Source: a virus
Length of the DNA stretch: 64,000 nt
Virus record (IMG/VR): IMGVR_UViG_3300027973_000048
Span: 10,067 to 74,066 of that record
Direction: 5' to 3' (one strand)
Shown here: one piece after another, positions 7,364 through 30,090 of the stretch
Layout of the letters: every line of letters starts with the position of its first letter
How positions within the stretch are numbered: position 1 is the first letter of the stretch
Translations under genes and position numbers: made by a program
The notes under the pieces: generated by a model
Seen by the model: only the letters and a program-made list of their open reading frames with translations
Databases searched by the model: none
What the model was told of the DNA's origin: nothing

Positions 7364-9301
7364 ATGAAAGATCCAATCCAAGAATCATTAAATAAAATTC
7401 GTCTAGTAGAATCACAACAGGTTGATGAATATAGTTGGGACGAATTCAAACAAGATGCAGGCGATGCAGGTCGTGGTGCCTGGCAAGGTGCAACTTTTGG
7501 ATTAGGCAATAAAATTGCTGCTGGTGCTAAATCAGCATTTGGCAAACAATCATATCAGGATTATTTGGATCAAGAAGAAAAAGCTGATGCTGCTGCTAAA
7601 GAACGTAGCCCTTGGCTTTATGGTACAGGCGAACTGGCTGGCGGAATTGGTGTTCCAGGAGCAGGACTTGCTGGCGTATTAGCTAGAAAGGGTGCTACAA
7701 AATTGGCTGGAAAAGCATTAGGAACTGGTGCTCGAGGTACTAAATGGGCAGAAAGAACTGGAAAAGCTGGCGAAACCGTAGCTAGCGATGCTGTTAATAA
7801 ATATGGCAGTGATGTTATCCAGCAAACAGGAAACAGTTTGCTTGATAAATTGGCTGTTCCAGCGGCCGTTGCAGGTGCTGCGGCAACTGGAGCAGTAGCT
7901 GCCAACACTGTGGGTTCAAGAAAACTAGATCCTGATCCCAAAGTTCAAGCATTACAAAACAAATTAATTGCCAAAGGTGCAACAATTAAAGCGGACGGTA
8001 TTATGGGACCAAAAACTCAAGCAGCTATGAAACAATATGGCATTACTATGGAATCAAAAAGTAGCTTAATGATGGAATTAATGGATATGGAGGAAGCTAG
8101 AGGTAGAGTTCGTCCAAACAGCCGATTCGACGATCCAAAATCTTTTAAAGGCGGAAGCGCTTCATCATCGGCACCAGCACCAGAACCAAAATCTGCTCCT
8201 GCTCCTGCTCCTGCTCCAGCACCAAAAAAACCTCGCTATACTGCTTCTGAGATTAATGCTCATAGCGCAGCAGGTGGAAAGTTTGATCCAGCGACAGGAG
8301 AGATGATTCCTCTTCCAAAAACTCCAGCTAATAATCGAGTTAGAAATAAAGAATTACAGCCAAGTGGGGGAGAATTATCTAGACAACAAAGAACAAGATC
8401 TAATTTAAACAGAGAACCAAGAACAACTACTCCCCCACCTGCAGAGCCATCAAGACTTGGTCAACTAGCAAAAAATACTGCCATAGGATTAGGCACAGCA
8501 GGAGCTACAGTCGCTGGCACTGCATTACTTGACAAATGGTTGAATAGCAAGTCAAACGACCCCGCAAATGATCCCGCTAATGGCGGTGGTTCAGCAGGCG
8601 GTGGTTCAGCAGGCGGTGGCGCTGGAGGAGGCGAAGGCGGAGTTGCTGGAGGGGGTGAAGGTGGTGGTGCCGGCGGTGGTACATCCAAAGGCGGCGGTGG
8701 CGGAGCTGGTGGCGAAGGCGGTGGCATCAGCACACAAACTGGTCCAGGAGGAAATAGCAGCGGTGACGAAGGAGAACCAATGAGACCTACTGGGAATAGA
8801 GCTTTATGGATGCGTAATGAATTAAAAGATCTAATGAAAGAAATTTCTACATATAACGACATACCTGAAGCAGTAGCTTTAAATAAAGAATATCAGGAAT
8901 TTATAAAATCAGATGTTGGACCTACACCTGGACCTGGACCTACACCTGGACCTACACCTGGACCTACACCTGGACCTACACCTGGACCAAGACCTAGACC
9001 AGAACCAAGACCAGAACCAAGACCAGAACCAAGACCAGAACCAAGACCAGAACCAACACCTGGACCTACACCTGGACCTGTTGCTCCGCAATCAGACGAA
9101 TGGTCATGGCAGGATGCTGGCAAATCAACTAAAGATGCTTTAAAAGCTGCTGGAAATGCTGCTTGGCAAGGGGCAAAAACTTTTGGTCATAATGTTGCAG
9201 ATTTTGGAAGAGGATTCATGAAAGAGGGCGAGGAAAATGGACTAAGAGAAGATCCTGAACTCACAGCTATTATTCATAATGCAGGATTGAATCGTAAATA
9301 G
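7364..9301 (+). CDS. Gly/Ala/Pro-rich virion protein with peptidoglycan-binding domain
   Basis: 645 aa; VQALQNKLIAKGATIKADGIMGPKTQAAM (PG_binding_1 pattern); GATFG and glycine-zipper-like helices; poly-Gly and PT/PR repeats. Confidence 0.75.
   Translation: MKDPIQESLNKIRLVESQQVDEYSWDEFKQDAGDAGRGAWQGATFGLGNKIAAGAKSAFGKQSYQDYLDQEEKADAAAKERSPWLYGTGELAGGIGVPGAGLAGVLARKGATKLAGKALGTGARGTKWAERTGKAGETVASDAVNKYGSDVIQQTGNSLLDKLAVPAAVAGAAATGAVAANTVGSRKLDPDPKVQALQNKLIAKGATIKADGIMGPKTQAAMKQYGITMESKSSLMMELMDMEEARGRVRPNSRFDDPKSFKGGSASSSAPAPEPKSAPAPAPAPAPKKPRYTASEINAHSAAGGKFDPATGEMIPLPKTPANNRVRNKELQPSGGELSRQQRTRSNLNREPRTTTPPPAEPSRLGQLAKNTAIGLGTAGATVAGTALLDKWLNSKSNDPANDPANGGGSAGGGSAGGGAGGGEGGVAGGGEGGGAGGGTSKGGGGGAGGEGGGISTQTGPGGNSSGDEGEPMRPTGNRALWMRNELKDLMKEISTYNDIPEAVALNKEYQEFIKSDVGPTPGPGPTPGPTPGPTPGPTPGPRPRPEPRPEPRPEPRPEPRPEPTPGPTPGPVAPQSDEWSWQDAGKSTKDALKAAGNAAWQGAKTFGHNVADFGRGFMKEGEENGLREDPELTAIIHNAGLNRK
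8918..9079 (+). repeat. 12-bp coding tandem repeats (GPTP)n and (RPEP)n
   Basis: Units ggacctacacct and ccagaaccaaga are visible in tandem. Confidence 0.9.
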
Positions 9302-10245: not shown

Positions 10246-10292
10246 AGCAGGCCATAATCTGCTCAATCGGTATTTGTCTGCCACAAAAGACA
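10246..10292 (+). promoter_or_regulatory. Twin RNA hairpins in DNA polymerase leader (candidate translational operator)
   Basis: AGCAG-GCCATAAT-CTGCT and TGTCT-GCCACAAA-AGACA, the second ending just before the AGGAGAG RBS. Confidence 0.55.
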
Positions 10293-10303
10293 TAGGAGAG
10301 TTT

Positions 10304-12970
10304 ATGTACGTCGATGCTTATTTCGACCGTGACAATGATATTGTCAGGGTTGTGGAACGTAACCGTGATGGTAAAAGAGAATATAAAGATATTCCTGGCC
10401 GTTACACGTTATATTATGATGATCCCAAAGGCAAGTACACTAGCATTTACGGCAATACCGTAAACAAAATCACTTGTAAAACACTAAAGGATTTTCATAA
10501 AGAACTAAAGATTAATTCAAATAAAAAAATCTACGAAGCAGATATCAATCAAGTATTTGTCTGTTTGAGTGATAACTATCTCAACGCCGATGCGCCCAAA
10601 CTTAATGTGGCATTTTTTGACATCGAAGTAGACTTTGATCCAGAACGTGGCTATGCAAGCCCAGATGATGCATTTATGCCTATCACTGCTATCAGTGTAC
10701 ACTTACAATGGCTAGATACACTGATTTGTTTAGCAGTGCCGCCCAAAGGTATGAGCGTTGAAAAGGCTGAGGAACTAGTCAAGGAACTTCCCAACACATA
10801 TATCTTCAGTAATGAAGCTGATATGTTGGACACATTCTTAAACTTAATTGAAGACGCTGACGTATTAACTGGTTGGAACAGTGAGGGCTACGATATACCC
10901 TACACTGTTAACCGTGTGACCAAAGCATTGAGTAAGGACGATACTAGACGTCTTTGTCTATGGAATCATTATCCTAGACGAAGAGAATATGAAAAATACG
11001 GCAAAAAAGCAGTCACTTATGATCTTGTAGGGCGTGTACACTTAGACAGTTTGGAATTATATCGACGTTACACTTATGAGGAACGTCATACTTACAGATT
11101 AGACGCCATTGGTGAAATGGAGATTGGTGAACGTAAAACTGTCTATGAGGGTACACTGGATCAACTTTATAACAATGACTTTAAAACGTTCATTGAATAC
11201 AATCGTCAAGACTGTGCTCTATTAGACAAGCTAGATAAAAAACTTAAATTTATCGACTTAGCTAATACATTGGCACATGAAAATACTGTGCTACTACAGA
11301 CTACTATGGGTGCTGTAGCAGTTACTGAGCAGGCCATTATCAATGAGGCACATCGTAAAGGTGTGGTCGTCCCCAATAGAACTAAAATGAGCGAGCGTGA
11401 GGATACTGCGGCAGCAGGTGCTTATGTTGCTCATCCCAAAGAAGGCATTCATGACTGGATTGGTTCAGTTGATATTAACAGTCTATATCCATCAGCCATT
11501 AGAGCACTTAATATGGGACCAGAAACTATTATTGGTCAATTGCGTCCCAATCTAACTGATCAATATATCTATGATCAAATAAACGATCATAAGAAAAGTT
11601 TTGCTGGTGCTTGGGAAGGTAAATTTGGTTCATTAGAATATGAAGCAGTAATGAACAAAGAGATTGGCACTGAAATTGTCATTGACTGGGAAAATGGAGA
11701 AACTGATGTAGTCAGTGCCGCTGAAACATATAAACTAATTTTTGACAGCAATCAACCTTGGATGTTGAGTGCTAACGGTACAATTTTTACTTATGAAAAA
11801 GAAGGAGTTATTCCTGGCCTACTAAAACGCTGGTATAGTGAACGTAAAGAAATGCAGGCCAAACTAAGGGAGGCCATAAATGCTGGTAACAAAATTGATG
11901 AAGAGTATTGGGATAAACGCCAATTGGTTAAGAAAATTAACCTCAATAGTCTTTACGGTGCTATTCTTAATCCTGGCTGCCGCTTTTTTGATAAGCGTAT
12001 TGGTCAATCAACCACGCTCACAGGCAGACAAGTTGCCAAGCACATGGCTGCTAAGGTAAATGAAATCATCACAGGAAAATATGACCATGTAGGCAAAGCT
12101 ATCATTTACGGTGACACTGACTCAGCATATTTTAGCGCATATAAAACACTAAAAAATGAAATTGAAAAAGGTACCGTACCTTGGAGTAAGGACAATGTCA
12201 TCTTCCTATATGATCAAATTGCCGATGAAGTCAACGGCACTTTTGCACAATTTATGTTGGATGCTTTTCATTGTCCAAAGAGTCGTGGTGAAGTCATTAA
12301 GGCGGGTAGAGAACTAGTGGCTACCAAAGGATTGTTTATTGCTAAAAAGCGTTATGCAGTATTATATTATGATAAAGAAGGCAAACGCACTGATGTCAAT
12401 GACAAGCCTGGCAAGATTAAGGCCATGGGACTAGACTTGAAGCGCAGTGATACTCCAGAATTTATTCAAGACTTTTTAAGCAAAGTCTTAGAAATGGTTC
12501 TAACTGGCAGCGAAGAACGAGAAGTCATTGACTATATTAATGAATTCAGAACTGAATTTAAACTTCGTCCTGGTTGGGAGAAGGGCAGTCCTAAACGTGC
12601 CAACAATATTACTGAATATCAGATAAAAGAAAACAAACCAGGTAAGGCCAATTTACCAGGGCACGTTCGTGCAAGCCTTAATTGGAACAACTTAAAAACT
12701 ATGAACAGTGACAAATATTCCATGAGTATTACTGATGGTGCCAAAGTTGTTGTGTGCAAACTAAAAAACAATCCACTAAATTATACTTCAGTGGCTTATC
12801 CAGTGGATGAATTGAGATTACCTCAATGGTTTAAGGATTTGCCATTTGATCACGATGGTATGGAAAATTCCATCATTGATAACAAATTAGAAAACTTAAT
12901 CAGTGTGCTAGGATGGAATTTCCAAAGCACTGAAGAAACGAACACATTCAATAAGTTTTTTAATTTTTAA
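10304..12970 (+). CDS. Family B DNA polymerase (T4 gp43-like)
   Basis: Exonuclease motifs FDIEV and GWNSEGYD; polymerase motifs DINSLYPS, KINLNSLYG and YGDTDS; start moved to the ATG after AGGAGAG. Confidence 0.97.
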   Translation: MYVDAYFDRDNDIVRVVERNRDGKREYKDIPGRYTLYYDDPKGKYTSIYGNTVNKITCKTLKDFHKELKINSNKKIYEADINQVFVCLSDNYLNADAPKLNVAFFDIEVDFDPERGYASPDDAFMPITAISVHLQWLDTLICLAVPPKGMSVEKAEELVKELPNTYIFSNEADMLDTFLNLIEDADVLTGWNSEGYDIPYTVNRVTKALSKDDTRRLCLWNHYPRRREYEKYGKKAVTYDLVGRVHLDSLELYRRYTYEERHTYRLDAIGEMEIGERKTVYEGTLDQLYNNDFKTFIEYNRQDCALLDKLDKKLKFIDLANTLAHENTVLLQTTMGAVAVTEQAIINEAHRKGVVVPNRTKMSEREDTAAAGAYVAHPKEGIHDWIGSVDINSLYPSAIRALNMGPETIIGQLRPNLTDQYIYDQINDHKKSFAGAWEGKFGSLEYEAVMNKEIGTEIVIDWENGETDVVSAAETYKLIFDSNQPWMLSANGTIFTYEKEGVIPGLLKRWYSERKEMQAKLREAINAGNKIDEEYWDKRQLVKKINLNSLYGAILNPGCRFFDKRIGQSTTLTGRQVAKHMAAKVNEIITGKYDHVGKAIIYGDTDSAYFSAYKTLKNEIEKGTVPWSKDNVIFLYDQIADEVNGTFAQFMLDAFHCPKSRGEVIKAGRELVATKGLFIAKKRYAVLYYDKEGKRTDVNDKPGKIKAMGLDLKRSDTPEFIQDFLSKVLEMVLTGSEEREVIDYINEFRTEFKLRPGWEKGSPKRANNITEYQIKENKPGKANLPGHVRASLNWNNLKTMNSDKYSMSITDGAKVVVCKLKNNPLNYTSVAYPVDELRLPQWFKDLPFDHDGMENSIIDNKLENLISVLGWNFQSTEETNTFNKFFNF

Positions 12971-12973
12971 AAC

Positions 12974-13002
12974 TTGACAGAAGACTTTTTTCTAAATAAA
13001 AT
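12974..13002 (+). promoter_or_regulatory. Sigma70 promoter with overlapping late TAAATA
   Basis: TTGACA-17-TAAAAT; TAAATA at 12993-12998. Confidence 0.7.
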
Positions 13003-13019
13003 TAACAAAGGAGAATATT

Positions 13020-13751
13020 ATGATTAAAGACATTTTAACAGATATCGTAGCACATACTCATGCATTGGGGTTTTTAACAACCATTAAAATTACCAGTGAT
13101 GACAAAGAAACTGTAATTGACGGTATCTCTGAAGACAAAGGCGTGATCTTTAATGCCAAAATGAAAAATCCAGTAGCCGAATTTGAAGGCACGTTTGGCA
13201 TGACTAATCTTGACAAATTAAATTTGCATTTGAAAAGTCCTGAGTACAAAGAAAACGCTACCATTGAAGTGGTAAAAAATTCTAAAGCTAAAGGTTCTGC
13301 ACCAAGCAATTTATATTTTGAAAATGAAACTGGCGACTTTACCAATGAATTTAGATTCATGTCAACTCAGACAATTAATTCTGTTATTAAGCCACTTTCA
13401 TTCAAAGGTGCAAAATGGGATATTTCATTTACCCCTAGCGTAATTGCTATTCAAAGATTGAAATTACAAGCCCAAGTACATTCTAGTGAAACAAAATTTA
13501 CTACCACTGTGGATAATAAAAACCTTGTATGCAGCTTTGGCGATGCCAGCACTCATGCTGGTAACTTTATTTTTCAAACTAATGTTACCAAACTTAAAAA
13601 TGAACTAAAATGGCCAATTCAACAAATTATATCAATCCTAAGTTTGAGTGGTGACTGCACTATGCACATTTCAGATGAAGGACTTATGATGATCACTATT
13701 GACAGCGGCATTGGTGAATACAACTATATTTTACCAGCACAAACAAAATAA
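13020..13751 (+). CDS. Sliding clamp (gp45/PCNA-like)
   Basis: 243 aa alpha/beta protein directly after the polymerase; C-terminal MHISDEGLMMITIDSG..YNYILPA resembles clamp beta-strands. Confidence 0.7.
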   Translation: MIKDILTDIVAHTHALGFLTTIKITSDDKETVIDGISEDKGVIFNAKMKNPVAEFEGTFGMTNLDKLNLHLKSPEYKENATIEVVKNSKAKGSAPSNLYFENETGDFTNEFRFMSTQTINSVIKPLSFKGAKWDISFTPSVIAIQRLKLQAQVHSSETKFTTTVDNKNLVCSFGDASTHAGNFIFQTNVTKLKNELKWPIQQIISILSLSGDCTMHISDEGLMMITIDSGIGEYNYILPAQTK

Positions 13752-13760
13752 TAACCCTTC

Positions 13761-15320
13761 ATGAACACTAACCTAACATCAACACAACTAGATTACGCTA
13801 AGTTTCTACCAGCAACTAGTACTTTTTATGCTACCTTTATAGGTAAACAACGCTATTTCAATTACGTTGACCCAGCACGTATACCTAAAAGTTTTAAAAA
13901 TGGCATAGAAAGTATGAACTATTTGGATCCAATAAAAGGTCAATTTTACTATGAATGGTGCCTTTATAGTGCTGGTCATGCTAATTTAGACTTGTCTAAA
14001 CCCTGTGAAAGGGAGGACATGTTCCGTAATCGTGATCGTAATACTAGTTGGGTGTTAGGTGACAGTGGTGGATTCCAAATTGGTAAGGGCAAATGGGAAG
14101 GCGATTGGAAAAACCCTAATTGCCCTAAGGCTCAAAAGAAACGCAGTCAAGTATTAAACTGGATGGACAGTTTAATGGACTATGGTATGAGTTTAGATAT
14201 TCCCAGTTGGGTTGGGCGTATTCCAGAGAATGCTCAAAAAACTGGCATCAATGACTTTAACGAAGCTGTACAAGGTACTCATATCAATAATGAATACTTT
14301 ATACGCAATAGAAATGGTCGTTGCAAGTTTTTAAATGTATTACAAGGTGAAGATCACGGTCAAGCAGATAACTGGTATAAAGAAATGAAAAAATATTCTG
14401 ATCCAAAACAATATCCAGACGCACACTTTAATGGGTGGGCAATGGGTGGTCAGAATATGTGTGACATTGATCTGGTACTAAGTCGCTTAGTTGAACTGCG
14501 ATTTGACGGGTTGTTGGAAAAAGGTGTGCAAGATTGGATGCACTTTTTGGGAACTAGTAAATTAGACTGGGCTGTCATGCTCACCGACATCCAACGAGCA
14601 GTGAGAAAATATCATAATCCTAACTTTACTATTAGTTTTGACTGTGCCAGTCCATTTTTGGCCACAGCAAATGGTCAAATTTATTATCAGACAGAAACTA
14701 AGGATAAATCCAAATGGACTTATAGAATGGGCGCTGGTGCTGATGATAAAAAATACAAAGCTGATCGTAGATTTTATAAAAACGCAGTGCTACAAGATAA
14801 AATTTTGGACATATTTGAAAGCAGTCCTATTATAGACAAGATTAGACTAAATGAAATCTGTGTTTATGGCCCGGGTGATTTGAATAAAGTTGGCCAAAGT
14901 AATAAAACCAGCTGGGATAGTTTTAGTTATGGCATTATGATGGGTCATAATGTATGGCATCATATCAATGCTGTACAAGAAGCTAATAGACAATATGACT
15001 CAGGAATTAGTCCCAATATGCTATACCCTAAAGGATTTACTTCAGAATCATTTAGAGACATTGTTGACGAAATTTTTGCTACTAGTGACAAAGGCAAAGC
15101 ACTTGATCTAATCAAAAAAAAATATTCATATTTTTGGAAATACGTTATTGGTACTAGAGGAGTTAGCGGAGATCGTGCTGTTAGCCCAATTCCTAATTAT
15201 AATAAATTTTTTACTGAATTGAATGTCGAAATTAAAGAAGAATTTGATGAGGAAGATGCACTCAAACTAGAAGCATTAGTAAATGAATTTGAACATGAGG
15301 AGAACAATGAAACCACTTAG
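13761..15320 (+). CDS. dpdA: TGT-fold 7-deazaguanine DNA transglycosylase (DpdA-like)
   Basis: TGT motifs GDSGGFQ, MSLDIP, NVLQG, GWAMGG, HFLG and SFDCASP; clustered with folE, queE and a QueD-fold gene. Confidence 0.8.
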   Translation: MNTNLTSTQLDYAKFLPATSTFYATFIGKQRYFNYVDPARIPKSFKNGIESMNYLDPIKGQFYYEWCLYSAGHANLDLSKPCEREDMFRNRDRNTSWVLGDSGGFQIGKGKWEGDWKNPNCPKAQKKRSQVLNWMDSLMDYGMSLDIPSWVGRIPENAQKTGINDFNEAVQGTHINNEYFIRNRNGRCKFLNVLQGEDHGQADNWYKEMKKYSDPKQYPDAHFNGWAMGGQNMCDIDLVLSRLVELRFDGLLEKGVQDWMHFLGTSKLDWAVMLTDIQRAVRKYHNPNFTISFDCASPFLATANGQIYYQTETKDKSKWTYRMGAGADDKKYKADRRFYKNAVLQDKILDIFESSPIIDKIRLNEICVYGPGDLNKVGQSNKTSWDSFSYGIMMGHNVWHHINAVQEANRQYDSGISPNMLYPKGFTSESFRDIVDEIFATSDKGKALDLIKKKYSYFWKYVIGTRGVSGDRAVSPIPNYNKFFTELNVEIKEEFDEEDALKLEALVNEFEHEENNETT

Positions 15321-16200
15321 TCTTATCATAGGCATGGGCATTGGAGAACTGTACCGATCTGTGCTAGAACAACTGGATCATAGTATCGTAACTGTGGATA
15401 GTGATGCCAATAAACATGCCGACTACACCACAGTAGAACAAGCTCTAGATGACTATGAACAGTTTGATACTGTGCATATTTGTACGCCCAATTATACTCA
15501 CGAAGCTATTGCATACCTAGTAGCACCAAAAGCTAAGATAGTTTTTATAGAAAAACCAGGACTAATCACAGCAGATGCTTGGGACAAACTACTAGACACC
15601 AATCCCAACACAAGAATCATGATGGTGAAAAACAATCAATATCGTGATGAGATTGAAGAATTGCAAACTCTTGCTGCTGCCAGTGTAATTGTCAATGTTA
15701 ATTGGATTAATCATGATCGTGTACCTAATCCAGGAACTTGGTTTACTAACAAAGAATTGGCTTTTGGCGGAGTTAGTCGTGATCTTATGCCACATTTACT
15801 CAGCTTATGGATCGCTTTAGATTATAACTATGACGAGGCAGATCGTGTACGCAAGGATGTTAGACAACGCTGGCAACTAACTGATATTACTAACACAAAC
15901 TATGGAGCTGTCAACAAAGAAGGAGTGTATAATGTAGACGACTATTGTAGATTAGGCTTCTTTGGTGAAGAAACTATGTGGACATTCACAGCAGATTGGC
16001 GCAGTCTAAACGGAGATGACATACAAATTGAATTTGTACTGGATGGAGATAAGAAAATATCCAAACCATTAGGTCTTTGCCCCGAAAGTGCCTACAAAAA
16101 GATGATTGAAACTGCAATTGCTAACATTGACGACAATGTATTTTGGAATGACCAACATTACCAAGATCAATGGATCCATAAAAAAATCGAGAAACTATGA
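15307..16200 (+). CDS. Gfo/Idh/MocA-family NAD(P) oxidoreductase
   Basis: IIGMGIG Rossmann motif, ICTPNYTH, FIEKP and GGVSRDLMPH; GAGGAG RBS before 15307. Confidence 0.88.
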   Translation: MKPLSLIIGMGIGELYRSVLEQLDHSIVTVDSDANKHADYTTVEQALDDYEQFDTVHICTPNYTHEAIAYLVAPKAKIVFIEKPGLITADAWDKLLDTNPNTRIMMVKNNQYRDEIEELQTLAAASVIVNVNWINHDRVPNPGTWFTNKELAFGGVSRDLMPHLLSLWIALDYNYDEADRVRKDVRQRWQLTDITNTNYGAVNKEGVYNVDDYCRLGFFGEETMWTFTADWRSLNGDDIQIEFVLDGDKKISKPLGLCPESAYKKMIETAIANIDDNVFWNDQHYQDQWIHKKIEKL

Positions 16201-17099
16201 ATAGAATACTTGTAACTACAGGACAGGGCGAATTTGTGGAAAGCGAATATGCTTGCCCAAAACTTGACGCCAACGAAATCGAAGTCAAAAGCATTATGAC
16301 CGGCGTTTGCCGCAGTGACATTGACATGATGCAAGGAAACTTTGGGCCACTACCTTTGAATATGCAAGGACACGAAGGTTTAGGCAAGGTCACAAAGGTT
16401 GGTACAGCAATTTTTGATGTAAGAGTTGGGGATTTGGTGGCTACTAGAGGTGAGCCTGCTTACGCTGATCAATATACAGTACGCCAATATGAATATGTAA
16501 ATGTTCCAGAGGCACATCCACGATATATTATTGAACCTGTGGCCTGTGGTGTTAACATTGTTAGCCAAGCACTATCAGAATTGCGATGGCGTCAAGGTGC
16601 AAATAGTAAATTATTAATACTGGGCAGCGGATTCCTAGCTTGGGTTGCTTATCATACTATTACAAATCACTATCACTTAAGATTTGACATTGATGTCATA
16701 GGCAATTCCAATCAAGACTTGTGGGGTGATCGACTAATACCAAACACCGATAAACAATACGACGTCATAATTGATTTGAGCAGCAAAGGTGATGTATTTG
16801 ATAAGGATTTATACAAAGATTGTGCCTTGATCATTATGGCAGCTGCCAAAACACAACCAGTTAGTACTACTTTTGATAAAATGCTTTGGAAAGCTGTCAC
16901 TATGGTATTTCCTAGTCCACGCAATTCCAAATTTCATCAATGTATGAGAGATGCTGTTTGGATGATTGAAAATGGCAAACTTGATGTTGACAAGTTCTGG
17001 ACAAGAAGCTATAATCGTAACACGGAATGGCAACAAGCATTTAAAGACGGTGCAGATCGTCCAGCAAATTACAGCAGAGGTTATATAGAATGGCAATAG
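16197..17099 (+). CDS. Zn-dependent (MDR) alcohol/sugar dehydrogenase
   Basis: GVCRSD, GHEGLG, IEPVAC and ILGSGFL; lacks the structural-Zn Cys loop. Confidence 0.88.
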   Translation: MNRILVTTGQGEFVESEYACPKLDANEIEVKSIMTGVCRSDIDMMQGNFGPLPLNMQGHEGLGKVTKVGTAIFDVRVGDLVATRGEPAYADQYTVRQYEYVNVPEAHPRYIIEPVACGVNIVSQALSELRWRQGANSKLLILGSGFLAWVAYHTITNHYHLRFDIDVIGNSNQDLWGDRLIPNTDKQYDVIIDLSSKGDVFDKDLYKDCALIIMAAAKTQPVSTTFDKMLWKAVTMVFPSPRNSKFHQCMRDAVWMIENGKLDVDKFWTRSYNRNTEWQQAFKDGADRPANYSRGYIEWQ

Positions 17100-17593
17100 A
17101 TACAGAAGGTAGACAAAACGTAGACTACTTTATTGGCGTGGAAGTAGAACATACTCCAATGAAAGGTGAACGCACATTGTTCGTAGTTGGTGTTAAACCC
17201 GTAGAAGAAATTGTACTAAAGATCAATAATCTTCGTCATATCTATCTTGGCACTAGTCAAAGTTTTAATCCACAAACTTACGAAGATTGGAAGTCGTGGG
17301 ATCATATGATCAAGAGCTTGTTAGAACTGGGCTATTGGGTGACCTTAGACTTTGATGCCAGCTATGCTCGTGACTTTCACGAAGAAGGCTGGAGTGAGAA
17401 CGATCATTTCATTCCCATGATCAGTGTGAAACTGCCATACATTGGCTTGTTTAATTACAACACTACTGTTAAAATTGATGACACAACTTGGGGTGATACT
17501 AATCCCGGTGTGTGGACTCACAGTCTACATTCACTGATGGATCGTAGTAACTTTACCAGCTGGGACAAATACACAGAGGATACACCAATATGA
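17090..17593 (+). CDS. Hypothetical protein within dpdA operon
   Basis: 167 aa globular ORF overlapping both neighbours. Confidence 0.7.
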   Translation: MAIDTEGRQNVDYFIGVEVEHTPMKGERTLFVVGVKPVEEIVLKINNLRHIYLGTSQSFNPQTYEDWKSWDHMIKSLLELGYWVTLDFDASYARDFHEEGWSENDHFIPMISVKLPYIGLFNYNTTVKIDDTTWGDTNPGVWTHSLHSLMDRSNFTSWDKYTEDTPI

Positions 17594-18147
17594 GTAAACC
17601 AAAAATTTGTAAAATAAAAAAAAGCTTAATTGGTACTAAGGTACCACACCGAGAATCTGGACGCACTGGTCAATTCATTGAAGATGCCCATGCAAAATTA
17701 GGGATGCCAGTCCAACCAAATGAAGGTCCTGATTATCCAGAGTTTGATTTAGAAATGAAGTCCAAATCAAAAGAATCTAAGTCAGCTTATAGTATTGGCA
17801 CTATGAGTAGATACAATATTGTAAATACGCCATATAGCCAATCGACTATAAAACGAAAGCTTCAACAACACTATCATGTTTATCATAAAGATGAAACTAT
17901 CACAGATCAAATCACATATGATTTTAGGGCAGATGATATCCAAGAAGAATTAGAACGAGCCTACGAAACTGCAAGACAAAAAATTATTAATGGGGATTCT
18001 GGCTACGTTTCTGGAACAATGTTTGGATACTTTGAAGAAAGATCTGATAGTCCTGACAATTATCAATTTAGGATTAGTGTAAAAGGAATGGAAGCACTTA
18101 AAAATTTAGAAAATCCAAAATTTAGAGAGTTTTTTGAATTCATATGA
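17590..18147 (+). CDS. PD-(D/E)XK nuclease, MutH/Sau3AI/MvaI-like
   Basis: GQFIED..LGM....GPDYPEFDLEMKSK catalytic signature. Confidence 0.6.
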   Translation: MSKPKICKIKKSLIGTKVPHRESGRTGQFIEDAHAKLGMPVQPNEGPDYPEFDLEMKSKSKESKSAYSIGTMSRYNIVNTPYSQSTIKRKLQQHYHVYHKDETITDQITYDFRADDIQEELERAYETARQKIINGDSGYVSGTMFGYFEERSDSPDNYQFRISVKGMEALKNLENPKFREFFEFI

Positions 18148-18555: not shown

Positions 18556-18801
18556 ATGGCACAACCCGCATGGCTTAACAAGTATCTTACTTTTAAACCC
18601 GAAGTACACAAAATCTTCGATGATCTTGAAGCCTATCACGACTGGTGCAGGTTTGAATTGGCACCTTTTAACGAAGCTGATCTTTACAAAAAGAACAGTC
18701 CAGTATATAGTGCTTACATGAACAGTAAACGACCACGCAAGCCTTATCAAGGTAAAAATGCTGGACAAGGACGTAAGCGTGAGCAAAATATTCCTAGTTG
18801 A
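18556..18801 (+). CDS. Hypothetical protein
   Basis: 81 aa; AGGAAAG RBS. Confidence 0.7.
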   Translation: MAQPAWLNKYLTFKPEVHKIFDDLEAYHDWCRFELAPFNEADLYKKNSPVYSAYMNSKRPRKPYQGKNAGQGRKREQNIPS

Positions 18802-19879
18802 TCTCGAAGCCGTAGAGACCAGGTACACCGGGCAGTGGAAAATCCACTTGCCCGAAACTCTTAGGAAACTCGGACATGAAGTTGAAATTATTAGCGGGCC
18901 TAGCGATATCCCTAGTGCTACTACTCCCGGTGCTTTTCTTAACTTTGGTGGTACAAACATTTATAAGTCTGCCCAAGTTGAAAAAATGGGTCGTCTATTT
19001 TGCGCCGGAGCAGTTAAGCCTGGTGATCATTTTCTGTTTACAGATGCTTGGCACCCTGGAATCATCAATCTCAAATACATGTCTGAACTGCTTGGTGTGC
19101 CGGTAAAGACTCATGGTCTTTGGCACGCCGGCAGTTATGATCCCCAAGACTTCCTAGGCAGACTGATTGGTCCCCAATCTTGGGTAGTCTGTGCTGAGAT
19201 GAGCTACTTCTATGCTTTTGACCATAATTACTTTGCCACTGAATTCCACGTCGAGCTATTCATGCAAGAATTACTCAATGGTGGGTTCAAAGGTGAAAAT
19301 CCCTATTGGGAAGAGGATTGGGCTAATAGATACGACAGTGGCAAAATTGTAAAGACTGGTTGGCCTATGGAATATATGCAAAAAATCCTAAAAGGTTATC
19401 GTAGTCTTCCCAAAAGAGATCTTATTCTATTCCCACATCGCATTGCTCCAGAAAAACAAGTAGATATTTTTAGAGACTTGGCCAAGCAATTACCACAGTA
19501 TGACTTTGTTGTTTGCCAAGATCATCAATTGAGTAAACATGAATATCATACCTTGTTAGCTGAGGCTAAGATGGTATTCAGTGCTAACTTACAAGAAACA
19601 TTAGGTATTAGTTGCTATGAAGGTTCGGTATTAAATGCAATTCCCATGGTACCTAATCGTCTAAGCTACAAGGAAATGTACTACGACGAATTTAAATATC
19701 CTACAGAATTTACTGAAAGTTTTGAATCCTACAAGCAATTTAAACATTTTTTGATTGAAGACATCGTAAATCATATGGAAAATTATGAAAGTAAAATAGC
19801 ATTAGTAAGAAAACAAGAAAAGGATTTACATGAGCGATTTTTCTCCGCAACAGAATTATACAGTAACTTGGGACGGTGA
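18779..19879 (+). CDS. GT-B glycosyltransferase (GT4-like)
   Basis: FPHRIAPEKQ, QETLGISCYEG and PNRLSYKEM; start is GTG 18779 or ATG 18758. Confidence 0.82.
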   Translation: MSKIFLVDLEAVETRYTGQWKIHLPETLRKLGHEVEIISGPSDIPSATTPGAFLNFGGTNIYKSAQVEKMGRLFCAGAVKPGDHFLFTDAWHPGIINLKYMSELLGVPVKTHGLWHAGSYDPQDFLGRLIGPQSWVVCAEMSYFYAFDHNYFATEFHVELFMQELLNGGFKGENPYWEEDWANRYDSGKIVKTGWPMEYMQKILKGYRSLPKRDLILFPHRIAPEKQVDIFRDLAKQLPQYDFVVCQDHQLSKHEYHTLLAEAKMVFSANLQETLGISCYEGSVLNAIPMVPNRLSYKEMYYDEFKYPTEFTESFESYKQFKHFLIEDIVNHMENYESKIALVRKQEKDLHERFFSATELYSNLGR

Positions 19880-21130: not shown

Positions 21131-21504
21131 TGTCAGATTTAACAAGGGCCTTAGATGATGGACGAGCTCCGTGGAAAGAAATTGAATACAGAACCAAAAA
21201 CTACTGGGTCTTCAAAGACGCTTACCCGGTATCGGAAGGACATTTGCTATTTGTGCCAACCGAAAAAAAACTTGAAAACTTGGTTGCGTGTTTCCAAGCA
21301 GCCTACAAGTTCGGCTACGACGGCATGGTCCAAGAAAAATGGCATGGCTTTAACGTCGGGCAAAACTGTGGCGAGGCTGCTGGCCAAACCGTAAGCTATC
21401 CCCACGTACATTTGATCCCACGTCGTACAGGTGATGTCAAAGATCCCAGCGGCGGTGTTAGACATGTCATACCAAAAAAAGCCAAATACAAACGTGAAAA
21501 ATGA
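21127..21504 (+). CDS. HIT-family nucleotide hydrolase
   Basis: DAYPVSEGHLLFVP and GQTVSYPHVHLIPR histidine-triad signature. Confidence 0.9.
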   Translation: MMSDLTRALDDGRAPWKEIEYRTKNYWVFKDAYPVSEGHLLFVPTEKKLENLVACFQAAYKFGYDGMVQEKWHGFNVGQNCGEAAGQTVSYPHVHLIPRRTGDVKDPSGGVRHVIPKKAKYKREK

Positions 21505-21691
21505 AGTAAAGATTGTTTGGGCTAATCAAGACAAATTTTGGTGGAATGAAGCCTGTGCCCAAGTACTTGAAAGATTTGGATTACCCGGTAAAAGATATAC
21601 AACTTCTGTGAACGAAAATAATCTAATCTTCAAGTTTCATTCTGATCATGATGCCACCATGTGTCGTCTGGTATTAAGCGAATACATATGA
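21494..21691 (+). CDS. Hypothetical protein
   Basis: In the operon; GTG start assumed. Confidence 0.55.
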   Translation: MKNEVKIVWANQDKFWWNEACAQVLERFGLPGKRYTTSVNENNLIFKFHSDHDATMCRLVLSEYI

Positions 21692-22179
21692 ATTTGATAG
21701 AATATAAAAATAAAAAGTACCCAGCATTCCAAGCTGAAGGAAATGCTAGCCAATTTGCCATACCTTTTGCTCTACACTTTTGCAAAGGAGATGGGTTTGA
21801 TGTTGGATGCAATAGAATTGAGTGGGCATTCCCTACTGCTCAACCAATTGACTTAAAAATTGACGACGAATGGAACGCCTTACATTTGCCAGATAGGCAA
21901 GTTGATTATATATTTTCTAGCCACTGTCTTGAACATTTACCCAATTGGGTTGATGCACTAGACTATTGGGGTTCCAAACTTAAAGTTAATGGTACGTTAT
22001 TTTTATACCTTCCAGACTATAGCCAAGAATATTGGCGACCTTGGAACAATAGACAACACATTCATGTATTAGACCCCGTCATAGTCAAAGACTACCTAAT
22101 AGATAGGAAATATACAAATATTTTTTATAGTGGTAGAGACTTAAATGACAGTTTCATGATTGTGGCTGAAAAATCTTGA
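21688..22179 (+). CDS. Class I SAM-dependent methyltransferase
   Basis: FDVGC, DYIFSSHCLEH and LKVNGTLFLYLP. Confidence 0.85.
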   Translation: MNLIEYKNKKYPAFQAEGNASQFAIPFALHFCKGDGFDVGCNRIEWAFPTAQPIDLKIDDEWNALHLPDRQVDYIFSSHCLEHLPNWVDALDYWGSKLKVNGTLFLYLPDYSQEYWRPWNNRQHIHVLDPVIVKDYLIDRKYTNIFYSGRDLNDSFMIVAEKS

Positions 22180-22204
22180 CACTTGCCTAAATAACCTATA
22201 TAAT
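22176..22204 (+). promoter_or_regulatory. Consensus sigma70 promoter with nested late TAAATA
   Basis: TTGACA-17-TATAAT; TAAATA at 22188-22193. Confidence 0.8.
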
Positions 22205-22224
22205 ATATCAAACAAGGAATTGGT

Positions 22225-22920
22225 ATGGCTGAAAAAAATCTAGCACAAGTATTGCGTGATCGTATGCGCCGAGAAGGTAAAAGGTTCTGGGCAGGCGATA
22301 ATATATCCGATTATGTGGAAGAACCTTTCAAAGATGAACTAATTAATGATGCAACCAAAGCATTTGAAAACGTGCTGGACGCATTACTGATTGATAGAGA
22401 AAATGATCCTAATAGTAAAGGAACTGCTCGTCGATTGGCCAAAATGTACTTTAACGAAATCATGGCAGGACGCTATGATCCCGCTCCCGACGCCACTAGC
22501 TTTCCTAACGAAGGCGAAGATGCCTATACTGGCATGTTGGTAGTACGCAGTGAACTTCGTAGTATGTGTAGCCATCATCATCAACCAGTTAATGGTGTTG
22601 CTTACATAGGAATTATACCAAATGGCAAAGTCATCGGATTATCAAAATACACAAGAATTGCTCAGTGGTGTGCCCGTAGAGGAACACTCCAAGAAGAACT
22701 GTGCAACGACATCGCTAAAGAAATTAGCCGCGCAACCAACAGCAAGAACGTTGGGGTCTATATCCAAGCCACACATGGTTGTTGTGAAAACCGCGGAATT
22801 ATGGCGCATTCCAGTCTCACACAAACCACAGTCTTAAAAGGTGCATTCAAAGACGATGTGGGTACTAAGAAGGAGTTTTTTGATAACATTAAACTCCAAC
22901 AAGATTTTGCACCAAGATAA
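22225..22920 (+). CDS. folE: GTP cyclohydrolase I
   Basis: SMCSHHHQP, IGLSKYTR, LQEEL and HGCCENRG motifs. Confidence 0.96.
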   Translation: MAEKNLAQVLRDRMRREGKRFWAGDNISDYVEEPFKDELINDATKAFENVLDALLIDRENDPNSKGTARRLAKMYFNEIMAGRYDPAPDATSFPNEGEDAYTGMLVVRSELRSMCSHHHQPVNGVAYIGIIPNGKVIGLSKYTRIAQWCARRGTLQEELCNDIAKEISRATNSKNVGVYIQATHGCCENRGIMAHSSLTQTTVLKGAFKDDVGTKKEFFDNIKLQQDFAPR

Positions 22921-23973: not shown

Positions 23974-24817
23974 AGTCAGCGAACTGTTTTATTCAATCCA
24001 AGGGGAAGGACGCTATATGGGTGTCCCTTCTGTATTTTTACGCACATTTGGCTGCAACTTTACCTGTGATGGGTTTGGCATGCCACGTGGTGAAAAAAGC
24101 CTTGAAAGAGTTAATGTGGCACTAATAGATGAAGAACAACCTTTTAAAAACTATAAAGACTTGCCTCTTGTATCCACGGGCTGTGATAGTTATGCTAGTT
24201 GGGATCCTAACTTCAAGCATCTTAGCCCTTTATATGATGTGGGTAATCTTGCAAATGATATTGTGGACCTACTACCACACAAAACGTGGAACGAAGAACA
24301 CCTTGTCATCACAGGAGGAGAACCTCTCTTAGGTTGGCAACGTAGCTATCCTGAACTGCTAGACGTAGATTCAATGATAAGATTGCGTCACTTAACTTTT
24401 GAAACTAATGGCACTCAAAAATTAACTTCAGATTTTAAAAATTATTTGATTAATTGGAGTGATAGGCTTCATAAACAAAGAGAAGTCACATTTAGTGTCA
24501 GTGCCAAACTGCCAGTGAGTGGAGAAAAGTGGGAAGATGCTATACTTCCCGAAGTAGTGTGTGACTATGAAAAAGTCGGTTATACTTACTTGAAATTTGT
24601 CATAGCAAGCGAAGAGGATTTACTAGATGCACGTCAAGCAGTCAAACAGTATAGAAATTATGGCTTTAAAGGCCCTGTGTATATTATGCCTGTCGGCGGC
24701 ATTGAGCGGGTGTACAGTCTTAATAATAGGCGTGTGGCAGAAATGGCAATGCGAGAAGGATGGCGGTATAGTGACCGACTTCAAGTGCCATTATTTAAAA
24801 ACGAATGGGGAACCTAA
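23960..24817 (+). CDS. queE: 7-carboxy-7-deazaguanine synthase (radical SAM)
   Basis: ELFYSIQGEG, FLRTFGCNFTC...CDS, ITGGEP, FETNG and RLQ. Confidence 0.93.
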   Translation: MSKIKVSELFYSIQGEGRYMGVPSVFLRTFGCNFTCDGFGMPRGEKSLERVNVALIDEEQPFKNYKDLPLVSTGCDSYASWDPNFKHLSPLYDVGNLANDIVDLLPHKTWNEEHLVITGGEPLLGWQRSYPELLDVDSMIRLRHLTFETNGTQKLTSDFKNYLINWSDRLHKQREVTFSVSAKLPVSGEKWEDAILPEVVCDYEKVGYTYLKFVIASEEDLLDARQAVKQYRNYGFKGPVYIMPVGGIERVYSLNNRRVAEMAMREGWRYSDRLQVPLFKNEWGT

Positions 24818-25485
24818 TGAAAACACTAACTGAGATTTTTGAAAATGACCTAACTTTCCACTGTGACAAGTATGGATCATATTTGCCTGTATATGAACAA
24901 TACTTTGAAAAATATCGAGATCGTCATATCAACTTTGTGGAAGTTGGCATCCAAGGTGGCGGCAGTTTGGAAATGTGGAAAAAATATTTCGGTGACAAAG
25001 CCAAAATTATTGGCATTGACATTGATCCCACTGTATATGAAAGACAAACTCCTGGCACAGAGATTGCCATTGGTAATCAAGAAGACGTAAACTTTTGGAA
25101 TATGATACTGCCTAAAATTGGTCCAATTCATGCATTCATTGATGACGGTGGTCACCAAATGAAACAACAGATTAATACCTTATTAGCAGTATGGCCCAAA
25201 ATTGTCAATGGCGGCGTATACATTTGTGAAGACACTCATACTAGTTATTGGTCTGACTGGGGTAACGGTGTAGGCAGAGAATGGACCATGATGGAATTTG
25301 CCAAAAAGATTCTTGACATGGTAAATTTTGTACACTGGCATGAATACCCAGAAGACTTGGGTGTATTAAGTAAATTTCAAGATATTGGTTCAGTTTGTTT
25401 TTATAATAGCATGATAGTGTTTACTAAAGGCCAACCAGAATGGATCAGACCAAAACCCTATCCAAATCCATTAGCAGGTCGATGA
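24817..25485 (+). CDS. SAM-dependent (sugar O-) methyltransferase-like
   Basis: EVGIQGGGSL, GIDID, IDDGGH and GGVYICED. Confidence 0.85.
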   Translation: MKTLTEIFENDLTFHCDKYGSYLPVYEQYFEKYRDRHINFVEVGIQGGGSLEMWKKYFGDKAKIIGIDIDPTVYERQTPGTEIAIGNQEDVNFWNMILPKIGPIHAFIDDGGHQMKQQINTLLAVWPKIVNGGVYICEDTHTSYWSDWGNGVGREWTMMEFAKKILDMVNFVHWHEYPEDLGVLSKFQDIGSVCFYNSMIVFTKGQPEWIRPKPYPNPLAGR

Positions 25486-26033
25486 TGAGAAAAATATTAG
25501 TATTAGGTTGTGGCAAAAAAACTCTTTTAGATTTTGAGCATGACGAGGTAGTCACTGTAGATTTAAATGAAAGTGTAGGAGCCACAGTAGTTCATAACTT
25601 AGATGCATATCCATGGCCTTTTGATGACAACACTTTTGATGTAATTTTAATGGATAATGTTTTAGAACATTTGACCGACATAGTTAAAACTATGGAAGAA
25701 TTACATAGAGTCAGTAAAAATAATGCCACTATTACTGTTATAGTTCCCTATTTTCGTAGCAAATGGGCCTGTGTAGACCCAACACATAAACATTTTTTTA
25801 CTGCTGACACATTGAGCTATTTTATCGATGGTCACATATATCATGAAAGATATGCCTATAGCACTTGTAAATTTCGAATGCTCAGTAAAAAATTTAATGA
25901 AGGCATTGATCAAACTTGGTTTCAACAACTGTTAATTCCTATAGCTGAACAATATACTGAATTTTATGAAAATAAAATTAGTCCTATTTTTCCATTGGAA
26001 ACATTAACATATCATTTGGAAACTATAAAATGA
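25482..26033 (+). CDS. Class I SAM-dependent methyltransferase
   Basis: LGCG, PWPFDDNTFD, VLEHL and DPTH. Confidence 0.85.
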   Translation: MMRKILVLGCGKKTLLDFEHDEVVTVDLNESVGATVVHNLDAYPWPFDDNTFDVILMDNVLEHLTDIVKTMEELHRVSKNNATITVIVPYFRSKWACVDPTHKHFFTADTLSYFIDGHIYHERYAYSTCKFRMLSKKFNEGIDQTWFQQLLIPIAEQYTEFYENKISPIFPLETLTYHLETIK

Positions 26034-26479
26034 AAAATTTCTTAAAAAGAATCTTTGGTATTACTCGAATGGAGGAATCCATTGCGGAAATACAAAAATT
26101 AAAGGAAGCTAAAGAAGCCGAAGTTCAAAGAGCAGAAGAAGCTGCTAAACGAGCATTGGAAGAGGAAGCTATTGCTAAAATGACTCCAAAGGAACGTGCC
26201 TCACAACGTGGCGAACCTTGGGTAGGTGTGCTGGAAACACATATCAATAAGGAAAACGTTCGTAATGGCTTCTTTGAGCTTGACTGGAACGATGAATTCA
26301 TTGTACAATTGAGGAAAGCAGGATATGGATACGACGCTGATCCACAAGAAGAAATTGTGGATCGCTGGTTCCGTGATCTTGCTCGCAACGTGCTAGCCGA
26401 AGAAGGTCAGGACGTTGGTCGTGGTGCTGGATATATTAACATAAACAAACTTGGTGGCGGACGTTCCGAAGTCAAATGA
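26030..26479 (+). CDS. Hypothetical protein
   Basis: 149 aa; coiled coil plus a GFFELDWN domain. Confidence 0.75.
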   Translation: MKNFLKRIFGITRMEESIAEIQKLKEAKEAEVQRAEEAAKRALEEEAIAKMTPKERASQRGEPWVGVLETHINKENVRNGFFELDWNDEFIVQLRKAGYGYDADPQEEIVDRWFRDLARNVLAEEGQDVGRGAGYININKLGGGRSEVK

Positions 26480-27444
26480 CATACATTTTAGTTGATACTG
26501 CGAATACTTTTTTTCGTTCTAGACACGCAATTAATGGCAGCGCAGATATAAAACTGGGCATGGCCTTTCATATTACCCTAAACAGCATTAAAAAAGCTTG
26601 GACTGACTTTGATGGCAGCCATTTAGTGTTCTGTTTAGAAGGTCGAAGCTGGCGTAAGGACTATTACGCACCTTATAAACGTAATAGAGCTGAATCTAGA
26701 GCTGCTGCCAGCGAACGTGAACAAGAAGAAGATCGTATTTTCTGGGAAGCCTTTGATACTTTTAAAGATTTCATAGCAGAAAAAACCAATGCCACCGTAT
26801 TGCAAAATCCACAACTAGAAGCAGATGATCTTATTGCTGGCTTTATTCAAAGTCATCCCGACGATGATCATGTTATTATTAGCACAGACAGCGATTTTAT
26901 CCAACTAATTGCTCCTAATGTACGTCAATATAACGGCATTAGCGAAACTACCTATACACACGAAGGTATTTTTGATAAAAAAGGCAAACGTGTAATTGAC
27001 AAAAAGACCAATGTGGAAAAAGATCTAATTGATCCAGAATGGGTGTTATTTGAAAAATGTATGCGTGGTGATCCCACTGACAATGTGTTCAGTGCCTATC
27101 CTAAAGTGCGTAAAAATAAACTATTAGAAGCATATAATGATCGTAATCGTCGTGGATTTGCTTGGAATAACCTAATGCTACAACGTTGGGTAGATCATAA
27201 CGGCGAAGAACATCGTGTATTAGATGATTACGAACGTAATCGTAGACTTATTGACCTAAAACATCAACCCGATGATATTAAACAAATCATTAACGAAACT
27301 ATTACAGCCAAAAGCCAACCTAAAAACATCAGTCAAGTTGGTATTAGACTTATGAAGTTTTGTAATCTATATGATTTAAAAAGAATTACTGAAAATATTC
27401 AGCAATATGCTGATGCATTTCAAGCTAACTATCCTGCGGAGTAA
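26476..27444 (+). CDS. rnh: RNase H / 5'-3' flap exonuclease (T4 rnh-like)
   Basis: ILVD, SWRKDYYAPYKRNR, EADDLIA, ISTDSDF and GDPTDNV. Confidence 0.92.
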   Translation: MTYILVDTANTFFRSRHAINGSADIKLGMAFHITLNSIKKAWTDFDGSHLVFCLEGRSWRKDYYAPYKRNRAESRAAASEREQEEDRIFWEAFDTFKDFIAEKTNATVLQNPQLEADDLIAGFIQSHPDDDHVIISTDSDFIQLIAPNVRQYNGISETTYTHEGIFDKKGKRVIDKKTNVEKDLIDPEWVLFEKCMRGDPTDNVFSAYPKVRKNKLLEAYNDRNRRGFAWNNLMLQRWVDHNGEEHRVLDDYERNRRLIDLKHQPDDIKQIINETITAKSQPKNISQVGIRLMKFCNLYDLKRITENIQQYADAFQANYPAE

Positions 27445-30026: not shown

Positions 30027-30037
30027 AAATTTACCAC

Positions 30038-30066
30038 TTGACACCGCCTTCGGGCGGTGTTATACT
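30038..30066 (+). promoter_or_regulatory. Sigma70 promoter overlapping a cUUCGg hairpin
   Basis: TTGACA-17-TATACT; ACACCGCC-TTCG-GGCGGTGT at 30041-30060. Confidence 0.75.
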
Positions 30067-30090
30067 ATATACATTATATAGGAGAACACT

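Follow-up and report, generated by a model that had tools for sequence, protein, structure and literature searches.

Three proteins encoded in the 64-kb window analysed here, the whole of a stretch taken from a 74-kb viral fragment in IMG/VR (record IMGVR_UViG_3300027973_000048), carry a similar short aromatic peptide at or near their C termini: a T4-type DNA polymerase, an enzyme with a tRNA-guanine transglycosylase (TGT) fold that we call DpdA-like, and a MutH-like nuclease. The peptide recurs in homologues of all three and in an FkbM-family methyltransferase of related phages, and its variants covary with residues of the sliding clamp encoded between the polymerase and the DpdA-like enzyme. 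From these comparisons of sequences we consider it likely that the shared peptide binds the clamp and so brings hypermodification enzymes to the replisome. The original prediction, made from the letters of the window, had pointed out the peptide and proposed that base exchange and the nuclease are tethered to the replisome through the clamp, so that DNA modification would be replication coupled. Its observation is confirmed, and the comparative data are far stronger than the window alone; its interpretation is supported, clamp binding and replication-coupled modification both being what we infer from the pattern of conservation.

The shared peptide and its conservation

The 898-amino-acid (aa) polymerase (positions 10274..12970, + strand), a family B enzyme of the T4 type, matches the Pfam families DNA_pol_B (3e-36) and DNA_pol_B_exo1 (7e-19) and aligns end to end with PHROG 262 (4e-202), and its C-terminal peptide TFNKFFNF (12944..12967, +) is the candidate clamp-binding tail. 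The clamp gene follows (243 aa; 13020..13751, +) and, as had been stated, the gene for the DpdA-like enzyme lies directly after it, 9 nucleotides separating the clamp open reading frame (ORF), which ends at 13751, from the start at 13761. The DpdA-like enzyme (519 aa; 13761..15320, +) consists of a core at aa 8-423 and a C-terminal extension, which includes the internal peptide NYNKFFTE (aa 479-486; 15195..15218, +) and, 3' of it, an acidic tail (15219..15317, +) with a predicted helix at aa 497-517. The nuclease (185 aa; 17590..18147, +) ends in KFREFFEFI (18118..18144, +). All three peptides that the original prediction had listed are present in the translations; each had been given a start one codon late, the coordinates being otherwise exact. 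Thus 12947-12970 translates to FNKFFNF and the stop codon, the preceding T being encoded at 12944-12946; 15198-15218 translates to YNKFFTE, with N at 15195-15197 and a 33-aa acidic tail after it; and 18121-18147 translates to FREFFEFI and the stop codon, with K at 18118-18120.

Within the window there are 10 instances of [FY]xx[LF]F among 21,014 aa (7.7 expected), and 2 of 80 ORFs have one in their last 12 residues (0.23 expected). When the polymerase tail was used for an unbiased BLOSUM scan, the nuclease and DpdA-like peptides ranked third to fifth, amid chance matches. Because the motif count is near expectation and the peptides rank among chance matches, the window by itself is suggestive at most, and the significance of the peptide comes from its conservation in homologues. 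Chance as an explanation is rejected on this comparative evidence, not from the window alone.

The related loci comprise 80 IMG/VR loci collected via the DpdA-like protein and 31 collected via the nuclease. The gene order polymerase-clamp-DpdA-like is near universal among them and is also found in phages PA5oct and Vibrio 2.275.O. Homologous polymerases end in NTFNx[LF]F[ED]F in 76 of 77 cases (logo KNTFN[SK]LF[ED]F, up to the stop codon), the exception (L007) being a truncated 507-aa ORF. In the DpdA-like family, [FY]xx[LF]F lies in the last 60 residues of 113 of 120 homologues, compared with 3.7% of background ORFs (logo ST[NQ]FA[KN][LF]FDE), and F484 is the sole position in the last 50 residues that is conserved at 90% or more. 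The nuclease family has the consensus tail MAKSTFxxLFE (logo KSTFNNLFE, terminal): the six homologues in the first locus set all end in the motif, and among 150 representatives of less than 50% mutual identity it is present in strict form in 68 and in loose form in 97. Taken over the four families, methyltransferase included, the motif stands at 45-100% of C termini, against a C-terminal background (1414 ORFs) of 0.9% for the strict form; the loose form has a background of 5.9%. Among the 3538 ORFs of the loci, only the polymerase, DpdA-like and nuclease families have a recurrent C-terminal motif. When the check that had been proposed, a comparison of homologous polymerase and DpdA pairs, is made, the motif proves to be kept by both partners in about 110 environmental contigs and in three cultured phages whose relationship is distant. 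The form in which the motif had been written, [FY]xxFF, needs amendment: the motif is indeed shared, but FF is the minority variant, FxxLF[DE] being the consensus of the family.

The DpdA-like enzyme and the mobility of its motif

The folds of the clamp and of the DpdA-like enzyme are recognised only by structure prediction, because sequence searches of Pfam, NCBIfam, PHROG and PDB came back empty. The AlphaFold2 model of the DpdA-like enzyme is of moderate quality (predicted local distance difference test (pLDDT) 71, predicted template modelling score (pTM) 0.76); its top Foldseek matches are all tRNA-guanine transglycosylase, and a VIA alignment of about 300 residues within aa 8-423 has Z 16.1. 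The segment GDSGGFQ (G100-D101-S102-G103-G104-F105-Q106) is invariant across 27 DpdA-like sequences, and its DSGGFQ part corresponds to DSGG[FY]Q, the TGT catalytic-Asp motif. The sequence has no match in Pfam, NCBIfam, PHROG or PDB, and the 27 members match neither Pfam PF01702 nor the DUF6610 family of DpdA4 even at E values up to 1. PF01702 likewise matches nothing in PA5oct, Vibrio 2.275.O, Phosso or CP220, and all 14 control genomes match. The CxCxxC zinc motif is absent from the sequence, the sole invariant Cys near the expected region being C367. Distant homologues lie near 7-deazaguanine genes, which in PA5oct means QueE and in Vibrio 2.275.O FolE, QueC, QueF and an amidotransferase. 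The TGT fold, GDSGGFQ and the 7-deazaguanine neighbours justify the name "DpdA-like", and the label DpdA in the original prediction holds good in the sense of a TGT-fold enzyme within a 7-deazaguanine gene set. The family is probably a new DpdA subfamily, and the modelled fold makes its members putative enzymes of guanine/7-deazaguanine base exchange in DNA. It is also very abundant in the environment, with more than 7900 relatives scored.

The motif sits in the C-terminal extension of about 95 aa, in a region of pLDDT 50-59. In a subgroup of the family a basic linker of about 30 aa takes the place of the acidic tail, and the motif stands at the very C terminus (for example ..NNFANLFDE and ..LNPSLFE, each followed by the stop codon); such a move to the extreme C terminus behind a variable linker is seen in at least nine loci, and the enzyme of locus L026 has two copies of the motif. 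Because it lies in a low-pLDDT segment, relocates and is duplicated, the DpdA-like motif behaves as a short linear motif. In most homologues, PA5oct included (L083:7400-7617), the motif is followed 3' by a predicted helical element, EF[ST]x[DE]E..KL[DE]xLE, and this acidic element may be a second interaction site.

These properties bear on a reading in which only the polymerase tail docks, and the DpdA-like and nuclease peptides are structural elements or a resemblance born of AT-rich codons (AAA and TTT, for K and F). The near-expected motif count in a window of 35-40% G+C would fit such a reading, as would the position of the nuclease tail after a conserved helix. It accounts poorly for motif frequencies so far above the C-terminal background in four unrelated families, for a DpdA-like motif that sits in a low-pLDDT region and changes place, and for parallel changes of the same residues in separate proteins (see below). 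It is strongly disfavoured, and we give it hardly any credence.

The MutH-like nuclease

The nuclease, which we class as a MutH-like PD-(D/E)xK protein, belongs to a family of 258 representative clusters. Across 76 sequences D48 and K57 never vary and E55 reaches at least 90% conservation, in the D-x6-E-x-K spacing of MutH. Pfam MutH matches 21 of these 76 members (best E 3.6e-5) and MvaI_BcnI matches 3; the window protein itself is not matched by MutH. The earlier label of nuclease is thus upheld, and made more specific as MutH-like, by the catalytic residues and the Pfam matches of the family. The gene is found in 6 of the 80 related loci and is an accessory gene; a tblastn search of phage records with the nuclease found nothing.

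A fourth family with the same tail

Whole-record ORF scans were made of PA5oct, Vibrio 2.275.O, a 167-kb relative (G001) and the window's own record. In the whole proteome of G001, the sequence that best matches the tail of the polymerase is the C terminus, NKFESLFDFG, of an FkbM-family methyltransferase (Pfam Methyltransf_21, 1e-17; L127:2314-3357, equivalent to G001 21314-22360), which is encoded 70 kb from the replication module. The ending [FY]xxLFDF is present in 112 of 120 homologues of this methyltransferase (logo DN[QE]F[ED]NLFDFG, terminal). The 74-kb record from which the window is taken encodes no such homologue.

The same scans turned up other tails. Three hypothetical proteins of PA5oct, all on L136, end in an acidic linker followed by ..PFKLFS (EST35_0220; 15939-16541), ..IAELFK (EST35_0217; 14246-14749) and ..MPMPFLF (EST35_0204; 847-2442), and it is possible that they are further clamp clients, for example late-transcription factors. 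The remaining PA5oct and Vibrio 2.275.O ORFs that end in an LF-type peptide are all annotated as hypothetical. Among the ORFs of the related loci, a lone 171-aa ORF of one relative (L073:12430-12945) ends in ..ADLYFNLLFEPT.

Distantly related phages

In the distant phages the DpdA-like protein is only 28-36% identical to that of the window (36% in PA5oct, 28% in Vibrio 2.275.O). In PA5oct the polymerase ends in ..AHFDSLFGW and the DpdA-like protein has ..NSFNSLFDV followed by an acidic tail, and in Phosso the corresponding proteins end in ..TTFNDLFTF and ..KIVEGLF. In Vibrio 2.275.O the tails are ..NNTDLFDW for the polymerase and ..NNNDLFGW for the DpdA-like protein, so that in both the first aromatic residue is gone and a Trp has appeared at the end, a parallel change from FxxLF to NxDLFxW; among the 503 ORFs of this phage, the DpdA-like tail is the best match to that of the polymerase. 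The Phosso DpdA-like gene adjoins the primase and DnaB genes, not the clamp gene. A 240-aa "virion structural protein" encoded beside it was considered as the Phosso clamp and rejected, because BLASTP found it to be unrelated; the actual clamp was located after the Phosso polymerase. The polymerase gene of PA5oct is split by a Hef-like homing endonuclease gene (L083:1-4831), and the clamp-type tail is on the downstream part.

PA5oct DNA is reported to resist cleavage at several restriction sites that contain G, and the same report noted genes for QueE and PTPS but named no transglycosylase (PMC12191111). Its DpdA-like protein, EST35_0316, is a candidate for this missing transglycosylase of PA5oct-like jumbo phages, whose DNA appears to be G-modified and for which no DpdA has been named. 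The host of PA5oct is Pseudomonas aeruginosa PAO1, so that the hypothesis of clamp recruitment is open to genetics.

The sliding clamp and its covariation with the tails

The original prediction had taken the 243-aa ORF for the clamp, and the predicted structure bears this out by confirming a PCNA fold. The AlphaFold2 model (pLDDT 91.3, pTM 0.87) has two repeated beta-alpha-beta domains joined by an inter-domain loop. Foldseek matches it to PCNA with E 1e-11 and a template modelling score of about 0.7, and VIA-align superimposes 224 of 243 residues (model residues 1-243 on PCNA 5-255) with Z 18.5 and a root mean square deviation of 3.6 Å. On the strength of this model, the ORF at 13020-13751 is a sliding clamp. 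Its sequence has no Pfam match and no PDB profile match, and its PHROG family, 12062, is listed as "unknown"; its ESM Atlas neighbours are named PCNA-like, and in one cluster 16% of the members have gp45-slide_C. The C terminus has a conserved Y-x-[IL]-P-A. In PA5oct, EST35_0314 (L083:4912-5658, 248 aa), annotated as "structural protein (ESI-MS/MS)", is the clamp homologue, judging by its position after the polymerase, its size and its ..YILPAKSA ending; the PA5oct clamp is apparently present in virion preparations.

The first residue of the aromatic pair in F-x-x-[LF]-F is usually L in all four families. The polymerase tail has FF, not LF, in six loci, which fall into three groups on the clamp tree (the window with L002; L011-13; and L072); this tree is a quick one and requires at least two changes of state between LF and FF. 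In these loci the DpdA-like motif is FF in six of six and the nuclease tail in two of two (the window and L002), and the nuclease of the sister locus L015 has LF. The clamp positions that covary with the client motif are 99, 121, 125, 162, 171, 196 and 222, and the changes F171 to C/V/I, W196 to L/F/R, A222 to L and H99 to Y/F, together with changes in the inter-domain loop at 121/125, are found only in FF lineages. L015 and about 100 LF-type contigs, which include PA5oct, have F171 together with either A or V at 222, and W196 is retained in nearly all of them. Smaller clamp residues at 171 and 196 in combination with a bulkier residue in the ligand look compensatory. The register of the end-to-end superposition, which is not a residue-level alignment, suggests that clamp position 222 lies near PCNA 234 and that Y236, P239 and A240 lie near PCNA 250-253, which in PCNA are residues of the pocket.

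That the shared peptide docks on the clamp is suggested by the polymerase itself, because it is of the T4 type and its tail follows the same pattern as that of RB69: the RB69 polymerase ends in ..SLFDMFDF, comparable with TFNSLFEF of the polymerases here. The docking motif could be real and its receptor another protein of the replisome or of a replication compartment, such as single-stranded-DNA-binding protein, helicase/primase, the clamp loader or a replication-focus factor. Conservation and parallel switches show a common partner without naming it, the Phosso DpdA-like gene lies beside primase and DnaB and away from the clamp, and the acidic helix past the DpdA-like motif suggests a second contact. 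We nevertheless think such a receptor unlikely. The polymerase tail is positionally equivalent to the clamp-binding tail of T4/RB69 gp43, and the covariation makes rival receptors less likely, the residues compared, those of the clamp, changing exactly in the FF lineages. As to a compartment, PA5oct is reported to be unrelated to the nucleus-forming phiKZ-like phages (PMC12191111).

A different clamp, that of the host, must also be weighed. The phage peptide has one feature of a PIP box (the PCNA-interacting peptide, canonically Qxx[ILM]xx[FY][FY]), namely a hydrophobic residue three positions ahead of the pair, F-x-x-[LF]-F, in all four families; the canonical Gln is absent, position -3 from the first aromatic residue being K in the polymerase, S in the DpdA-like enzyme, K/T in the nuclease and D in the methyltransferase. 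Nor does any of the four families have the Q-L of the bacterial pentapeptide QL[SD]LF, of which only the (S)LF part recurs. By its sequence the motif is neither a canonical PIP box nor a bacterial QL[SD]LF. Were FNSLF nonetheless close enough to QL[SD]LF, the peptide might bind the host beta clamp (DnaN), the enzymes hijacking host clamps, and its S-L-F core followed by an acidic residue does resemble the bacterial pentapeptide. The missing Q speaks against this, as does the PCNA-type clamp that the phage encodes next to its own polymerase; moreover, the motif variants track the phage clamp, though the pocket of the beta clamp is strongly conserved across such diverse hosts as Sinorhizobium, Pseudomonas and Vibrio. 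We regard hijacking of the host clamp as very improbable.

Several observations weigh against docking on the phage clamp. In the window, the similarity among the three peptides is not above chance in the BLOSUM scan, and no gene resembling those of a clamp loader (RFC or gp44/62) was recognised. Most DpdA-like proteins carry the motif about 35 residues from the end, in a nonterminal position, and about one-third of the nuclease representatives are without even the loose motif; in these the tail follows the conserved helix and could be partly structural. The covariation is one-sided, in that FF also occurs in the DpdA-like enzyme or nuclease of several lineages whose clamp is of the LF type; the FF lineages number just two or three, with L072 on a long branch; and of the clamp positions 171, 196 and 222, which may line the peptide pocket, the PCNA register speaks for 222. 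Lastly, the polymerase of CP220, a Campylobacter phage with DpdA3, ends in ..ETLEEW and no other CP220 ORF has that tail, so that the tail hypothesis does not extend to all DpdA families. In CP220 the A1 profile and the Pfam TGT model match nothing. A radical-SAM (S-adenosylmethionine) protein of CP220, CPT_0157 (L183:5334-6350), ends in NTFRKSFFNF, close to the polymerase tail of the window, which may be chance.

Genomic context

With a completeness estimated at 21%, the fragment would belong to a phage genome of about 350 kb, that is, a jumbo phage, and a megablast search of phage records with the locus found no match and hence no close cultured relative. The order of genes on the + strand is polymerase, clamp, DpdA-like enzyme, GFO/IDH/MocA oxidoreductase, Zn-dehydrogenase, a 167-aa ORF, the 185-aa nuclease and further small ORFs. 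The oxidoreductase, the Zn-dehydrogenase (ADH_N) and a 373-aa ORF that belongs to no family lie within the DpdA-like operon (15283-17099 and 18758-19879). The two dehydrogenases are found in just 22-24 of the 80 related loci and are therefore an inserted accessory module, which may tailor the modified base. GTP cyclohydrolase I (FolE), which catalyses the first step of 7-deazaguanine synthesis, is encoded at 22225..22920 on the + strand (Pfam GTP_cyclohydroI, 5e-41), and a T4-type RNase H/FEN at 26476-27444.

The modification genes are flanked by three small SAM-methyltransferase-like ORFs, ThyX, and a MoxR-type AAA ATPase with a DUF2201 metallopeptidase/VWA partner (21661-22179, 24805-26033, 32723-33391 and 28935-31263 for the set); the AAA protein that resembles MoxR is at 28935-30026. 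The tail motif is present in none of the flanking SAM-methyltransferase-like ORFs, ThyX or the MoxR/DUF2201 genes, and the window showed no client resembling gp33 or gp55. A 645-aa ORF (7364-9301) has long Gly-rich (GGGAGGGEGG) and PGPTPGP/EPRPEPRP repeat tracts and coincides with a local peak in G+C content of 0.445.

A proposed model for clamp-coupled hypermodification

In the model that we propose, [ST]-x-F-x-x-[LF]-F-[DE]-[F/E] would be a short linear docking motif for the PCNA-like clamp of the phage. The T4-type polymerase would use the peptide as a processivity tether, as T4/RB69 gp43 does, and enzymes that act on new DNA would have acquired the same peptide: the DpdA-like enzyme on a flexible tail, the MutH-like nickase and, in related phages, the FkbM methyltransferase. 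Clamps loaded during replication could then carry these enzymes along the fresh duplex, and the exchange of guanine for 7-deazaguanine, the tailoring of the new base and any nicking that depends on modification would be tied to the fork in space and time. We incline, by a narrow preference, to the full form of this proposal, in which the clamp serves as a tool-belt for a hypermodification line made up of a divergent and hitherto unrecognised DpdA subfamily, the methyltransferase and the MutH-like nickase, the shared peptide coevolves with the clamp pocket, and 7-deazaguanine replacement is replication coupled and not merely post-replicative.

If this is true, the clamp tether on the transglycosylase would be a mechanism for processive, fork-linked modification, and replication coupling may explain the very high replacement levels in some phages. 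Phage clamp clients would then extend beyond polymerase, ligase and late-transcription factors. The tail would also serve as a sequence tag for DNA-acting enzymes in such genomes; the FkbM methyltransferase was found in this way.

Comparison with known systems

The closest precedent is the gp45 clamp of T4 and RB69. There the hydrophobic-acidic C termini of gp43, gp33 and gp55 can stand in for one another as epitopes that bind the clamp, and the clamp of RB69 has been crystallised with the last 11 residues of the polymerase (PMC2988020). In both that system and the present one, a short tail is common to the polymerase and to unrelated proteins of the same phage, and in both it is a hydrophobic and acidic tail at the extreme C terminus after a variable linker. 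The additional putative clients here differ in being DNA-modification and nicking enzymes, not transcription factors, and the clamp differs in having no Pfam gp45 match, its closest solved folds being those of PCNA. What is new is probably the client set for a known kind of motif, together with the DpdA subfamily.

Like the phage enzymes DpdA1 to DpdA4, the DpdA-like enzyme has the TGT-superfamily fold and the catalytic-Asp motif; unlike them, it has no similarity to Pfam TGT at the level of hidden Markov models and no CxCxxC, and it carries the motif-bearing C-terminal extension. The gene for DpdA3 of phiST also lies between pathway genes and polymerase genes (PMC10516641). Phage 7-deazaguanine insertion has been viewed as post-replicative, with no link to the replisome, and the reason why insertion efficiency spans <0.1% to 100% of guanines has been left open (PMC10516641). 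In our literature search no paper turned up that connects a sliding clamp with DpdA or with the hypermodification of phage DNA. The nuclease shares its D-x6-E-x-K triad and its weak Pfam MutH and MvaI_BcnI matches with the monomeric nicking endonucleases of the MutH/Sau3AI/MvaI-BcnI kind, and it differs from them in being shorter, phage encoded, located within a modification operon and equipped with a clamp-type tail.

Eukaryotic and archaeal clients that bind PCNA through a PIP box, such as DNMT1, UNG2, FEN1, RNase HII and NucS/EndoMS, provide the other comparison. NucS/EndoMS is itself a PD-(D/E)xK nuclease with a C-terminal clamp motif, and the interaction of DNMT1 with PCNA serves replication-coupled maintenance methylation. 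The psi-x-x-aromatic-aromatic spacing of the PIP box matches that of F-x-x-[LF]-F, and the clamp here has a PCNA fold with a conserved C-terminal Y-x-[IL]-P-A. The peptides described here differ in having K, S or D in place of Q1 and an acidic residue after FF/LF, and the putative clients differ in being phage encoded and, for the DpdA-like enzyme, in exchanging a base rather than transferring a methyl group. If the clamp tether on the transglycosylase is real, it would be a phage counterpart of the DNMT1-PCNA system.

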